A DNA stretch of 32,000 nucleotides, taken from assembly GCA_046328475.1 (NCBI GenBank), contig JAXLWN010000067.1, forward strand, positions 4,263 through 36,262, in the 5' to 3' direction. The notes beneath the pieces were generated by a model. That model ran no database searches, had not been told where the DNA came from, and saw only the letters and a list, made by a program, of their open reading frames with translations. Source of the stretch: Chloroflexia bacterium. GTDB taxonomy: Bacteria; Chloroflexota; Chloroflexia; Thermomicrobiales; CADCWN01. Below, piece after piece: positions 18,475-22,495 of the stretch (the stretch's first letter is position 1; each line of letters starts with the position of its first letter). A program made the position numbers and the translations under genes.

Positions 18475-19233
18475 ATGCCGCTGCTGCTCGACCGGTTGAG
18501 CGTCTATGGGGAGATGCTGGCGATTGCCAGCGAGGTGCTGGTCGAGCGGGAAGTGCTCCCGCTCGACCAGTTTCGTGCCCTGCTCTTTCCCCGCCGCGAG
18601 AACGAGACGCTGGAGCGCGAACTGCTCGCCGACCTGGGCGACCTGGGCATCGCGGCGGTTGACGAGCACTCCCTGCGTCGCGCGCTCGCGCCCGATCGCG
18701 CCACCGGCGCTGCGCTGCGCCTGCATGTCCTCGCCACGCTGCGCGCGTTCGAGGATGAGAACGCGGTGATCCTCGATCTCTACCGCTTCCTGCTCGAGGA
18801 TGGCTCGTTCGGGCGGCGCGTCCTCGATCGCGACGCGATTTGGCCGCGCTTTAACCGGCATTGCGCGGCGATCGGGATCGGTGGGCAATCGGTGATCCTC
18901 AACAGCCTCAAGATGGCCTCCTGGCTGCGGCTGATGACGTTCGTTGGCCTGGTCCGGCCAGAGCGCAGCAACACCTTCATCCTCGCCCCGAAGCTCGACC
19001 TCCTCCGCGCCATGCTCCGCTCGATCGTTGGCCTGGGTGGCGACAACCTGAGCAGCCGTCGTCGCGCGCATCGAGGCGCTTCGCCCGCTCACGCAGCGCT
19101 CGGGCTCGCTCCACCCCGGGTATGCCGACGCCCTGGCGCCTCGAACGGCGGCGAGATCGGGCTTACCACGATCGGAGATGCCGGCGGGGGTGCTGCTGCA
19201 CGACCGCGGCAACTCCATCGCCCCCGCGACTAG
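18475..19233 (+). CDS. Hypothetical protein (~250 aa), no family recognised; 3' third frameshifted, end uncertain
   Basis: Protein-like sequence from MPLLLDRLSVYGEMLAIASEVL... to ...LDLLRAMLRSIVGLGGDNLS. It then continues best in another frame (AAVVARIEALRPLTQRSGSLHPGYADALA). It could end at the TAG at 19231-19233 or run on toward the next gene. Confidence 0.4.
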   Translation: MPLLLDRLSVYGEMLAIASEVLVEREVLPLDQFRALLFPRRENETLERELLADLGDLGIAAVDEHSLRRALAPDRATGAALRLHVLATLRAFEDENAVILDLYRFLLEDGSFGRRVLDRDAIWPRFNRHCAAIGIGGQSVILNSLKMASWLRLMTFVGLVRPERSNTFILAPKLDLLRAMLRSIVGLGGDNLSSRRRAHRGASPAHAALGLAPPRVCRRPGASNGGEIGLTTIGDAGGGAAARPRQLHRPRD

Positions 19234-19267
19234 CGCGAACGCTCCGGGGAGGGCTGAGCGGCACGCC

Positions 19268-22139
19268 ATGTCTGCTGATGACGCGCGCCTGGTGCGGCGG
19301 TACTTCACGACCGAGGCGAGCACGAAGGCAAGCCGCGAGGACTCTCCTGCGGCTGCACCTGCCGATGGAGCGCATCCGCGTGCTCGATGCCAAGCCGATG
19401 GTTTTCCGCCCGCACGATATGTGGGAAGAGGGAGGCAGCGCCTACACCGGCGAGGCGGGGCTGCTGGCGGCGTTGCAGGCATCCATCCTCGCCGATCCGA
19501 ACCGGATATTCGTGGTGGTCGGCGAGCCGGGGTCGGGCAAGTCCCACCTGGCGCGCTGATCGAGCACTCGCTCGACGACGCCTCTCCCATTTCCCGATCC
19601 ACATCCTGCGCCACATCGACACCCTCGAAGCGGTCGTCAGGCGGCTGGAGGAGCGGACCGGCATCGCGACCGGTGCCAGGCCATCGTCGCACCTGCTCAC
19701 CACGCCCGCCGACAAGCTCGTGCGCTACCTGCTCGCCTCGATCGAGATGGAGTTGGGAAGCGACACCCCGGAAGGCGACCGCGACCCAGGGCTCGCGCAG
19801 CTGGTCGAGTCCGCCGCGTTCCGCGCGCTCGTGCAGGAGCAAGTCGGCCGCTATCAAGCCGAGCGCAAGCGCACGGACACCGGGTTGAAGACCCGGGAGC
19901 TTCTCGAACTGGGCGCGGCCGATTTCGCGGCACTGCGCGAGCAGATCGGGAGAAGAGCACTCTTGCGCAGGCGCAGGGGCGGTTCGAGCGCCTCGCCGCC
20001 GCCTTCGGGCTGGCCGTCCGTCGGCTGGCCAACCTCGATCGTCTCGATCTCAAGCAGCTCCTCGCTGCGATTTCCGAGCGTTGCATTGCGCTGGGCGAGC
20101 CCCGTGCTCATCCTGGAGGATGTTCCTCGACATGCTCCACGACGACCTGCTGATGGTTCCCTGCTCGACGAGTCGGCCGGGCACTTCGACGCGCTCGTCT
20201 GCTGGACGACCGGCTTCGAGAACTACATGCAGACCTACCAGGAGAGCAGCGCTACACCGCGCGCCTCTCGCTCACCGACGACCAGAACGAAGCCTACAGT
20301 CTCCAGGATGGCCGCTGCGTCGAACTCGTGCGCCGCTATCTGGATGCGGTCCGGCTCGACATCCCGGGCGGCTGCCCGGTCTGCGCGCGTGCCGGGCCGA
20401 TCTTCGACCACCTCTACCCGTTCAACGCCCCCTTCGTGCAGCGCCTCTACGACAACCTCACCACGCCCGGGCGAGAGCGGCGACGTACGCCCCGCCACCT
20501 CCTTGATCGGGCGGTGAAGGCGTACCTCGAGCTTGCCGAGCGGGATGGGGCGTTCCCGCCGCTCAAGCAACCGGACGCCGTGCAGGACATCTATTACGAC
20601 ACCGCCCTCTACCGTTATCGCGAGGAGTACGCCGCGTTCGTGGCCCTCGTCAGCTGGTACGGCGAGCGGCAGGACGGCAGCCTGCGCCTGCCCCATTCGC
20701 TGGCCCGTCACCTCGGGGTCGCGATACCGGAGGAGTTTGAGGAGGACGACCTCATCGAGATCCACCTCGCGCGCGAGGCACCCGAGCAGGACGTGGTGCG
20801 GGCGGCAACCCTGGAAGTAGATCTACAGAATCGCTTCAAATCCCTCCGGCTCGAACTACAGTCGTGGTACAACCACGGCACCCCGCTCGACCACTACCTC
20901 GATCTCCAGCGCGGCGCGTACAAGACGCTGCAGTTCTTCAGGCACCGCCTGCCGCTCACCTTTGCCCACCCGGCCGGCCCGGTCGGACTCGGGCAGCCGC
21001 TCACCTACGGGCGCAGCACAGGCGAGGTCAACATCTTCATCCGCAGCACACGCATGAAGCCGCAGCGCTCGCTGCAACTCGAAATCGGCCCCGGCGCGGC
21101 GGGCCTCGACGACGAGCAGAATTACCTCCTGCTCGAAACCCTGCTGGCGCTCCAGGTCTTCGGCAGCTATCCCGAGGACGCCGACCTTGCCCTGCTCGGG
21201 CACTGGGCCGACGCGGCCCACACGGCCTATCGCGAGCGGATCGAGCGGCGGCTCACCGAGGGCCTCGGCATGGATCTGCCGACCTTCCTCCTGCTCGCCA
21301 AGTTCCTGCTTCTCAACCGCTATCTTGCCGTCGGCCTGCCGCCGGATCCGCTGACCCTGCTTACGCCACTCGATGTCGAAATCGTGGCCGATGGCGAAGA
21401 TCCTGCACCGGTCGATTTTTCGCCGCTCCGCGCGCTTGCCGAAGTGATCGACGGCGCGCTGGTGGCGCGCTTCTTCATCGCGCGCGATTTCCTCGATTAT
21501 CCGCGACTGGCCGCCGCAATCGCTCGGCTCGACGTACCGGCGCTGGTGGAGCGGGCCGCCGCCATCGTGTTGACCCGCGTAGACGAAGACTTCCGCTTTG
21601 CAGGCGGGATACGCCTCCGCGACCTCGCGCGAGCGGTGAAGGGTGTGTGCGCCGCGCTGGGTGCCCTCGATCCGGGCGAACTCTACCGCCGCATCGCGGC
21701 GGAACTCGCGGAGGTGCAGGCCGCAACCGTGACCGCGCCGACGGCGATCGTCGAACGGATGGAGCGACTCGGCGATCGGCTCGGGCTCTACTCGCTGCAC
21801 GAACTCTACGACAGCCCGCGCTGGCGGCAGTGGCAGGCGGCGGTGTCAGACCTGCCCGATGGCGAGGCGACGGATGCCTCGGAGTTGCGCAAGGCGATTG
21901 CGTCGCTCCTCCAGCCGCCCGCCGACCCGTACGGCTATTTCGCCTGGCTCGGTCGGATCCGGCAGATTCAGCGCCGCCCCACCTATCGCACGCTGCGGGC
22001 GGCGCTGGACCTGCTGGCGCGACTGGAACCCGAGCTGAACAGCGCCGAAGACACAGGGATGGGTGAAATGCTCCGTGATGTCCTTGGGCGACGCGACGCG
22101 CTGCTGCGCGCGAGCAAGCCGCTACGGAGGGCGCGATGA
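19268..22139 (+). pseudogene. Large (~955 aa) P-loop NTPase, family not recognised (possible BrxC/DUF499-like features); at least seven frame changes in the first ~1.1 kb, last 1.8 kb intact
   Basis: Walker A VVVGEPGSGKSHLA (19521-19547) and Walker B-like PVLILEDV (20104-20124). A CPVC pair is followed by LYPFNAPF (20412-20435). A long helical C-terminal region (20328..22139) is intact. The start at ATG 19268 (MSADDARLVRRYF) follows ggggaggg and is tentative. Confidence 0.6.
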
Positions 22140-22495
22140 ACCTTGTCGAGCGGATCGACGCGACGATCGCGGCGATCGATCGCCTGCACGAGCAGCGGCA
22201 CCGGCCGCACATCGCCGCCTACTGTCGCCGGATCGGCCGGTTGCTCGACGCCGCAACCGCGGCCCTTGACCACCTCACCGCATCGTCGGCTGAGTCGGGC
22301 AACCAGTCCGCTGAAGCGCACTATCACGAACTCGGGCGCTGGGCGAGCCGGGTCGCGGCGCAGATCGACGAAGCCGCCCTCGTCCGGTGCGACCCGAGGA
22401 TCGAGCAATCGCTCGGCGACTTGGTGATGATGCTGCGCGCGGCGGTGCGGGCGCAGCAGCGGCAGGCACCGCACGCGGAATCATCCCCCGGGTGA
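22136..22495 (+). CDS. Small (119 aa) predicted helical protein, unknown function
   Basis: The ATG overlaps the NTPase stop (ATGA at 22136-22139) and is preceded by ggaggg, suggesting translational coupling. The composition is protein-like (MNLVERIDATIAAIDRLHEQRH...). Confidence 0.5.
   Translation: MNLVERIDATIAAIDRLHEQRHRPHIAAYCRRIGRLLDAATAALDHLTASSAESGNQSAEAHYHELGRWASRVAAQIDEAALVRCDPRIEQSLGDLVMMLRAAVRAQQRQAPHAESSPG

Follow-up and report, generated by a model that had tools for sequence, protein, structure and literature searches.

What does a large P-loop NTPase do when its gene follows that of a DNA-modifying type of transglycosylase? The question is raised by 32,000 nucleotides from a Chloroflexia bacterium (GenBank assembly GCA_046328475.1, contig JAXLWN010000067.1, positions 4,263 to 36,262 of the forward strand; this whole stretch is the window below), in which a three-gene module (gene 1, the NTPase gene and gene 3) lies downstream of a transglycosylase with TGT and DUF5591 domains (TGT-DUF5591). 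An earlier reading of the letters alone, the sequence-only reading, had placed the module in a dpd-like island and left two roles open for the NTPase: energy-coupling partner of the transglycosylase, or sensor/effector of a restriction branch. The island is dpd-like, as supposed: the NTPase is a homologue of DpdH, and gene 1, then regarded as an unknown protein, turned out to be a homologue of DpdG. On profile comparisons the homology of the NTPase to DpdH is firm; its function we infer from gene order, co-evolution and analogy.

The module

Coordinates below are those of the window, and gene sizes were corrected from intact orthologues with 97.8-98.6% DNA identity to it.

18475 to 19257, plus strand: gene 1, a diverged DpdG-like protein, 261 aa in intact orthologues (orthologues, hhalign)
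About 19260 to 22139, plus strand: the NTPase, a diverged DpdH-like AAA+ ATPase, 962 aa in the intact orthologue P0001 (NCBIfam, PADLOC, hhalign)
19521 to 19547, plus strand: Walker A GEPGSGKSH (G, K and S invariant in the alignments of relatives)
20104 to 20124, plus strand: Walker B VLILEDV (E288 and D289 invariant; its frame in the window differs from that of Walker A)
20250 to 20273, plus strand: RYTARLSL double-arginine motif, candidate arginine fingers R334 (invariant) and R338 (nearly so)
20373 to 20384 and 20412 to 20435, plus strand: CPVC pair and LYPFNAPF, the YPF lid motif (Y389-P390-F391 conserved)
20487 to 20513, plus strand: TPRHLLDRA with the invariant T413-P414-R415, containing a candidate sensor-2 arginine (alignment conservation)
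22136 to 22495, plus strand: gene 3, a 119-aa helical accessory protein in the DpdI position (ATGA overlap, orthologues)

The motifs quoted in the sequence-only reading (Walker A, Walker B, CPVC, LYPFNAPF and the ATGA overlap) all lie where it had placed them, and the module is not a chance arrangement: all relatives found share its gene order. Stop and start codons of the NTPase and gene 3 overlap as ATGA (22136-22139), with a GGAGG Shine-Dalgarno sequence 5 nt upstream, within the 3' end of the NTPase gene. The NTPase N-terminus and its boundary with gene 1 had been considered uncertain and can be read from the intact orthologues, in which the 261-aa gene 1 ends at 19257 and the 962-aa NTPase starts at about 19260. 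In the window itself, the apparent open reading frame (ORF) of gene 1 has 252 aa and ends at 19233, its 3' third scrambled by indels; the NTPase copy has a damaged GTG start codon and at least five frame pieces up to 20243, and is clean after that. The window is 67% GC, and the phase of GC at third codon positions (GC3) marks the plus strand as coding between about 13.1 and 22.5 kb. A 590-aa minus-strand ORF (18085-19857) was dismissed as a high-GC artefact, since the GC3 phase says that the plus strand is coding.

Homology of the NTPase to DpdH

The NCBIfam DpdH model NF041065 matches the NTPase with E 8.6e-20 and 70.8 bits over residues 4-369 only, short of the curated cut-off of 450, and the PADLOC DpdH model matches it with E 5.6e-12. 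On Pfam it hits only generic P-loop families (AAA_22, AAA_16), with weak nSTAND3, NACHT and NB-ARC matches at the P-loop. The clade is rare: a first search recovered six of its clusters among 5.8 billion. An exhaustive HMMER search of 1.84 billion representatives returned 542 relatives, 67 of them at E <= 1e-30, which fall into three tiers. Tier 1 is the narrow clade with at least 37% identity to the NTPase (eight representatives); tier 2 (21-33% identity) comes from the genomes of haloarchaea, Chloroflexia and Calidithermus; tier 3 comprises canonical-type DpdH proteins of 1040-1110 aa (Streptomyces, sphingomonads and others). A scan of GTDB genomes gave no tier-1 relative, only haloarchaeal/Chloroflexia tier-2 loci and canonical DpdH loci.

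Other tier-1 NTPases score 55-95 bits on NF041065, and three sampled tier-3 proteins score 279-338 bits over their full length. Profile-profile alignment (hhalign) of tier 1 with 26 DpdH-type tier-3 proteins gave a probability of 100% and E 6.9e-49 over 870 columns (2-929 against 14-1057). This match is full-length, so the C-terminal ~570 aa, described by the sequence-only reading as helical and without a recognised motif, are also DpdH-like; the helical tail itself stands. All closest detectable relatives of the NTPase are DpdH proteins. DpdB has a ParB-like NTPase fold with a DGQQR motif; for the NTPase, which is of the Walker type, the family scans gave no ParB or DndB match, and sequence searches of the PDB with two profiles gave no relative of the module proteins. 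As to position, the canonical order is seen in L039, a reference locus that reads DpdF-DpdG-DpdH-small gene. Canonical DpdH lies between DpdG and DpdI in an island with DpdA/B/C; here there are a DpdG-like gene upstream and preQ0 genes, but no DpdA/B/C and no recognisable DpdI, and TGT-DUF5591 stands upstream of gene 1.

In alignments of 21 to 45 relatives, residues G88, G91, G93, K94, S95, E288, D289, R334, P390, T413, P414 and R415 show no or almost no variation. This conservation of the Walker A and B, R334/R338, YPF and TPR residues argues that the NTPase is an active ATPase. A conserved zinc site at CPVC is doubtful: only C375 is nearly invariant, and the second cysteine is missing in P0005.

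An AF2 model of the NTPase (pLDDT 84, pTM 0.63) begins with a small beta domain and continues with a P-loop core, into which a long helical segment is inserted after strand 2; a lid, a winged helix, a long helical pair, an alpha/beta region and a helical tail follow in that order. Foldseek against the PDB returned weak generic P-loop matches only (TrwB, heptameric RdrA, ORC4/Cdc6). We read the NTPase as an AAA+ ATPase, putatively of the ORC/Cdc6-STAND type, with an architecture that may resemble that of BrxC.

Gene 1 is a diverged DpdG homologue

Direct scans with gene 1 gave no Pfam match (E up to 1) and no NCBIfam or PADLOC match (E up to 0.1). A hidden Markov model (HMM) of its orthologues does match, in loci of tiers 2 and 3, the ORF that directly precedes the DpdH-like gene, and the tier-3 ORFs in that position match NCBIfam NF041064 DpdG. 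With hhalign, tier-1 gene 1 aligns to DpdG of canonical dpd loci at 97.7% (E 2.1e-12, full length) and to its haloarchaeal/Chloroflexia tier-2 relatives at 99.6%, and the negative control against DpdI gave 0.7%. Membership of DpdG (NF041064 / PF28110) is thus supported by profile-profile homology and by the position upstream of DpdH, and a direct HMM match was not obtained.

The AF2 model of gene 1 (pLDDT 92, pTM 0.90) has three tandem winged helices, and Foldseek relates it to winged-helix arrays (STK19, Stn1, SelB). Its best global match is BrxA (7zge_A; TM 0.44/0.54, root-mean-square deviation 5.4 A over 219 columns, with E 0.058 at a probability of 0.97); E. coli BrxA reached 0.1% by hhalign. 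From the model, gene 1 would be a triple winged-helix, BrxA-like DNA-binding protein.

Gene 3 occupies the DpdI position

Gene 3 has a coding-type GC3 phase and is 99% identical to its orthologue on the intact contig L001. Orthologues of 82-119 aa with the motif CDPR(I/L/V)EQSL occur in eight further loci (L004, L006, L007, L009, L064, L067, L068 and L070). It is absent from the sub-branch L060, L061 and L063, and in L060/L061 no gene-3-like segment is fused to the ATPase or encoded after it. In that sub-branch a second, convergent TGT-DUF5591 paralogue takes its place (L060:13032-15302, L061:13105-15282, L063:7021-9252 on the minus strand). Where measured (L060, L061), this paralogue is 27-32% identical to the first and has an altered C1 motif (ACSKGKPYRDSAH in L060, ACSKTKPYCDSAH in L061), reminiscent of the division of labour between arcTGT and ArcS. 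Another sub-branch, c (L008, L065, L066), has a 243-244-aa protein instead, with a weak likeness to gene 3 in the first ~35 residues (hhalign 17-28%); in L008 a 130-aa PDDEXK_3 gene (L008:927-1319) lies between the DpdG-like and DpdH-like genes.

Scanning gene 3 with Pfam, NCBIfam and PADLOC gave nothing useful, and hhalign against BrxC was negative. With DpdI (NF041066) it shares only position and translational coupling: the PADLOC match has E 0.047, and hhalign against two DpdI sets stayed below 1%. We regard gene 3 as a helical accessory protein peculiar to this clade that takes the place of DpdI in the gene order.

Resemblance to BrxC

The sequence-only reading had likened the YPF element to a motif of DUF499/BrxC-PglY-like ATPases. 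The motif is indeed present in E. coli HS BrxC (NYPFVPWHYQIL, ~130 aa after Walker B), but membership of BrxC/DUF499 fails. No DUF499 or DUF6079 match was found for the NTPase on Pfam at E up to 1; against BrxC of E. coli HS, the sole BrxC target (taken with its brxA-brxB-brxC genes as the reference), hhalign reached at most 18% probability, in the P-loop region only, and BLASTP was not significant. Comparisons with E. coli BrxA and BrxB by hhalign were not significant. PglZ and PglX are absent from all annotated loci.

Four motifs of the NTPase are nevertheless co-linear with BrxC: GSGKSH, Walker B, QRYTARLSL (GRFSTRLQL in BrxC) and the YPF lid motif (LYPFNTPFVQRL at NTPase residue 388, NYPFVPWHYQIL at BrxC residue 397, where BrxC reads NYPFVP). 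By analogy, R334 and R338 would correspond to the arginine fingers K326/R330 described in Acinetobacter BrxC, and T413-P414-R415 to sensor 2, represented in BrxC by R430 (PMC13326643). In the predicted model (pTM 0.63) the motifs of the AAA+ core follow one another as in BrxC, with winged-helix, alpha/beta and helical parts after them.

DpdH and DpdI together have been described as the counterpart of BrxC (bioRxiv 10.1101/2025.09.15.676423). A natural 1531-aa DpdH::DpdI fusion in L004 (11835-16430, minus strand; NF041065 with 415 bits, NF041066 at residues 1421-1518) supports that equivalence. The NTPase thus belongs to the BrxC/PglY-like world, as the sequence-only reading had surmised, by way of DpdH and not by formal BrxC/DUF499 membership.

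The DpdG-DpdH pair is linked to TGT-DUF5591

16515 to 18450, plus strand: TGT-DUF5591 (ArcS-type) transglycosylase, 645 aa in L001 (Pfam TGT and DUF5591; frameshift near 17465)

On NCBIfam the transglycosylase matches arcTGT (2e-26) and ArcS (5e-26), and DpdA only at 0.003. It carries the exact ArcS C1 motif PCSETKPYSESRSH (pattern PC-x3-KPY-x2-S-x2-H; gene at L001:3859-5796). A stand-alone C1 domain of phage nt-1 converts dPreQ0 in DNA to dG+ (PMC10516641). The match pattern and the intact motif suggest an archaeosine-type DNA modification (dG+ or a lysine adduct) in a bacterium.

Conserved synteny with the transglycosylase, which the sequence-only reading had named as a check on its proposal, was found in other genomes: TGT-DUF5591 is followed by the DpdG-like (G) and DpdH-like (H) genes in 13/13 distinct tier-1 loci that extend upstream of the pair, and neighbouring genes of these operons overlap or nearly abut at their start and stop codons. 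Among ~55 tier-2 and tier-3 loci searched with the TGT-DUF5591 HMM, no such fusion lies beside the G-H pair. Pairwise identities between loci correlate among the transglycosylase, G and H (r = 0.97, 0.92, 0.95), and the effector genes vary by locus: L007 has DpdD, PLD and a DEAD helicase; L060 and L061 have a DEAD helicase with PLD or PD-(D/E)XK; the window has UvrD, PD-(D/E)XK and RecJ-DEAD proteins. In L064 the four-gene block is accompanied by Vut_1 and QueC, and the next 7 kb downstream contain no Dpd-type helicase or nuclease.

Several islands carry a second G-H set beside a helicase. L063 has a tier-2 G-H-I-DEAD helicase set, as does the L060 contig (seen in L080), and L004/L067/L068/L070 have a DEAD helicase, DpdG and a DpdH::DpdI fusion (415 bits on NF041065). 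A second set of this canonical type, next to the helicase, argues that the pair linked to the transglycosylase has a job of its own.

A proposed role for the pair

In canonical Dpd, the insertion of preQ0 into DNA by DpdA depends on the ATPase of DpdB (PMC10164549), and no ParB/DndB-like or DpdC-like Pfam family was found in the annotated tier-1 loci or among ten upstream ORFs of the window that were scanned. BrxC binds DNA, oligomerises with ATP, forms complexes with BrxB-PglZ and has a role in methylation; mutations uncoupling its associations have different effects on the methylation of the host and on the restriction of phages (PMC13326643). The precedents of DpdB and BrxC make an ATPase partner for the transglycosylase plausible. 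The inseparable, co-evolving TGT-G-H block, the lack of DpdB, the swappable effectors and the second G-H-I set point to this clade as the transglycosylase's own partner. Of the two roles left open earlier, comparative genomics (adjacency, co-evolution, the second G-H(-I) set) thus favours the transglycosylase partner, and homology points to the restriction branch.

We give about an even chance to the reading that the module is a diverged DpdG-DpdH paralogue, with gene 3 in the DpdI position, that is dedicated to the transglycosylase and forms an ATP-driven, BrxC-like assembly on DNA to load or activate it, with or without a role in restriction. The NTPase would bind DNA and self-associate in an ATP-dependent manner as BrxC does, with gene 1 as a DNA-binding or regulatory adaptor. 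By recruiting or activating the transglycosylase, their assembly would bring about the exchange of preQ0 into host DNA, where it may be converted further to an archaeosine-type base; the ATPase of DpdB fills that role in canonical Dpd, and BrxB/BrxC fill it for methylation in BREX. The same assembly may license the convergent helicase-nuclease genes on unmodified DNA, and in islands with a single G-H set, like this one, the module probably also gates restriction. A more specific version, somewhat less likely than not, is that a BrxC/DpdH-class AAA+ ATPase and its winged-helix partner were recruited as the ATP-dependent DNA loader of an ArcS-type TGT-DUF5591, replacing DpdB, and that bacteria, here Chloroflexia, thereby write an archaeosine-type mark (dG+ or related) into their own DNA.

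Several points weigh against a dedicated partner of the transglycosylase. Canonical Dpd modifies DNA with DpdA/B/C alone; the restriction phenotype comes from DpdD-K, their individual roles being unknown (PMC10164549), and by homology alone, these genetics make a restriction role the default. Phage DpdA enzymes do without an ATPase when they insert preQ0 (PMC10516641), so such a partner is not a requirement. Any tightly linked operon would be expected to show adjacency and co-evolution as well. In sub-branch c, whose loci lack upstream sequence, the same ATPase clade sits in an operon like those of canonical restriction, followed by the 244-aa protein and a YprA-like helicase (with an MZB/DUF1998 domain in L065). 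With one G-H set in its island, the module of the window may have to serve restriction too, and the AAA+ sub-classification is unsettled, given the weak Foldseek matches.

On the more specific version, DpdG-DpdH pairs would be enzyme loaders of a general kind, with one paralogue for the transglycosylase and another for the restriction helicase. Islands with the TGT-linked pair beside a canonical, helicase-linked G-H-I set offer a natural experiment on DpdG/H function, and the TGT-linked pair allows a direct test of whether the writing and the reading of a mark both rely on a BrxC-like ATPase as enzyme loader. The clade further indicates a way of placing 7-deazaguanines in bacterial DNA that does not use DpdB, through an ArcS-like fusion with an intact C1 motif, and this route may yield deoxyarchaeosine-type bases outside phages.

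Alternative explanations

One alternative is that the locus has decayed, the frameshifts being real and the module and much of the island pseudogenes in this strain. The sequence-only reading had counted at least seven frame corrections; the frames are broken, repeatedly between 19051 and 20243, but the count was too low. Alignment of the window to L001 (97.8% identity, 121 gap openings) shows 11 indels that shift the frame in the 3' third of gene 1. The start codon of the NTPase has lost 2 nt, and 12 further frame-shifting events follow at 19278-20243, with none at 20244-22499. Decay would account for these ~24 frame-shifting indels in genes 1 and 2, the destroyed start codon, an in-frame TGA at codon 7 and the truncated 252-aa ORF called in the public annotation of this metagenome-assembled genome (MAG), where protein U0841_24060 is 100% identical to ORF 18475-19233. 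It would also fit the excess of deletions over insertions (~3:1) and the mismatches in the affected patches, which show no third-codon bias (42/49/70 over codon positions). Against it, three Illumina-derived Logan contigs from separate runs (SRR22840552/4/5), ~98% identical to the window, encode intact genes of 261, 962 and 119 aa and agree with one another at every difference; P0001, the intact 962-aa protein, is on all three and is 99% identical to the NTPase of the window. The differences are confined to sharp patches (14.0-16.5, 18.5-20.5, 23-24.5 and 28-29.5 kb) that are rich in indels of 1-4 nt, with up to ~10% differences in the densest 500-nt bins and stretches without any in between. 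All 13 indel events of the NTPase (13/13) fall in its first 984 nt and 0 in the remaining 1896 nt (P ~1e-6 under uniform decay of an already inactivated gene). The patches hit the preQ0 genes (QueC/D/E, FolE2) worst and affect unrelated neighbouring genes likewise; such patchy indels look like a locally unpolished assembly. In the clean patches 30/46 mismatches are at third positions and mostly synonymous, which indicates a lineage under purifying selection. Judged on these intact contigs, the patchiness and the synonymous bias, the frameshifts are almost certainly local assembly noise in genes kept under selection, and real pseudogenisation is improbable.

With the genes taken as intact, the module could still belong to the restriction branch only, as an ATP-dependent sensor or scaffold on unmodified DNA that recruits the UvrD/PD-(D/E)XK and RecJ-DEAD effectors while the transglycosylase works alone. 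Full-length homology to DpdH and DpdG speaks for this, as do the genetics of DpdD-K (PMC10164549), the lack of another G-H set in the island of the window, the convergent helicase/nuclease genes that abut the module, and L065 and L066, where the same clade precedes the YprA-like helicase. It leaves unexplained the second, more canonical G-H(-I) set of L004/L067/L068, L060 and L063, and it does not fit a pair that never parts from TGT-DUF5591 while effectors are swapped or, as in L064, absent; we consider restriction alone somewhat unlikely. Far less probable is a BREX-type BrxA/BrxC pair, or an unrelated STAND-NTPase sensor of abortive infection that merely lies beside a deazaguanine cluster. 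The weak nSTAND3, NACHT and NB-ARC matches at the P-loop, BrxA as the best global fold match of gene 1 and the BrxC-like motifs are what it would explain; the lack of DUF499/DUF6079 and of significant hhalign matches to E. coli BrxA/B/C, the lack of PglZ/PglX in any locus, and closest detectable relatives that are all DpdH and DpdG have already largely refuted it.

The rest of the island

13115 to 16464, plus strand: preQ0 supply genes Vut_1/YhhQ, QueC, QueD, QueE and FolE2, error-laden in the window
22531 to 32000, minus strand: convergent putative effectors (orthologues, Pfam), namely a UvrD-type helicase (763 aa), a 915-aa PD-(D/E)XK protein, an 845-aa TPR protein and the C-terminal part of a 2415-aa RecJ(DHH)-DEAD fusion

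The island has the order Vut_1, QueC, QueD, QueE, FolE2, TGT-DUF5591, gene 1, NTPase, gene 3, with this G-H set as its only one. Upstream, the window has metabolic genes from 1 to 12.5 kb (ABC transporter, FAD-binding protein, isochorismatase, PLP decarboxylase, luciferase-like monooxygenase), so the island starts near 12.7-13.1 kb. In the related island L009, a Cas12f/TnpB-like gene (PF07282; L009:2587-3783) lies between Vut_1 and QueC.

The 2415-aa giant (window 30296-32000, minus strand, and beyond, as it runs off the window; L001:17555-19497, minus strand) combines RecJ-type DHH/DHHA1/RecJ_OB with DEAD/Helicase_C domains, and its C-terminus is 33% identical to a 1788-aa DpdJ-like helicase of L060. 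The 845-aa protein (27648-30178, minus strand) has weak TPR hits only and a 38% identical homologue beside the module in L006 (L006:8450-10090). Neither it nor the 915-aa protein was detected as a hidden homologue of DpdH or DpdD.

Comparison with known systems

The DpdG and DpdH families are known, and we found no published account of a bacterial clade with a diverged G-H pair operonically fused to an ArcS-type TGT. Like DpdH/DpdG/DpdI (NF041065, NF041064, NF041066), the module shows full-length profile homology and the order G, H, small coupled gene, in an island with preQ0 synthesis genes, a TGT-family enzyme, large helicases and nucleases. It differs in scoring 71 bits against the 450 set for DpdH, in lacking a direct DpdG match and in having only ~25% identity, over the N-terminal half. 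Its third gene (119 aa) is unrelated or unrecognisable, DpdA, DpdB and DpdC are lacking, and the module sits in the modification operon behind TGT-DUF5591 and not between dpdF and dpdJ. Several islands, moreover, carry the TGT-linked pair plus a canonical-type G-H(-I) set.

BRIGADE has been reported only in halophilic archaea, with mention of uncharacterised Dpd-like classes (Bell et al. 2025, bioRxiv 10.1101/2025.09.15.676423). It combines a haloarchaeal host with deazaguanine genes, DpdG, DpdHI, at least one YprA-like helicase and a PLD or PD-(D/E)XK nuclease. The nearest outgroup of the NTPase (21-33% identity) lies in the G-H-I sets of haloarchaeal, Chloroflexia and Calidithermus loci, which are followed by a large DEAD helicase. 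Deazaguanine genes are likewise combined with a PLD or PD-(D/E)XK nuclease, and some related islands have two big helicases. Of these components, the island of the window has the deazaguanine genes, G, H and a PD-(D/E)XK nuclease; its 2415-aa helicase is a candidate for the YprA-like one only in so far as its C-terminus is 33% identical to a DpdJ-like helicase. In contrast, its host is a Chloroflexia MAG, TGT-DUF5591 directly upstream is specific to this clade, and its effectors are UvrD, PD-(D/E)XK and the RecJ-DEAD giant instead of PLD and YprA.

With DpdB the NTPase would share only its proposed role, as the ATPase with whose help a TGT-family enzyme can act on double-stranded DNA; the folds are unrelated (ParB-like NTPase against AAA+), and we propose no homology. 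From BREX the module differs in the type of modification, base exchange in place of methylation, in lacking a significant profile match to BrxC, in the absence of PglZ, PglX and BrxL, and in having no BrxB-like inactive NTPase identified. The likeness to BrxC lies in a large AAA+ ATPase with the GSGKSH P-loop, the R(F/Y)xxRLxL double-arginine motif and the YPF lid at co-linear positions, in C-terminal winged-helix and helical regions, as in the model of the NTPase, and in a small winged-helix partner, encoded upstream, that binds DNA and is BrxA-like in fold, as predicted here for gene 1. BrxC is needed for both methylation and restriction (PMC13326643; bioRxiv 10.1101/2025.10.09.681413), and the role proposed here for the module is modelled on this.

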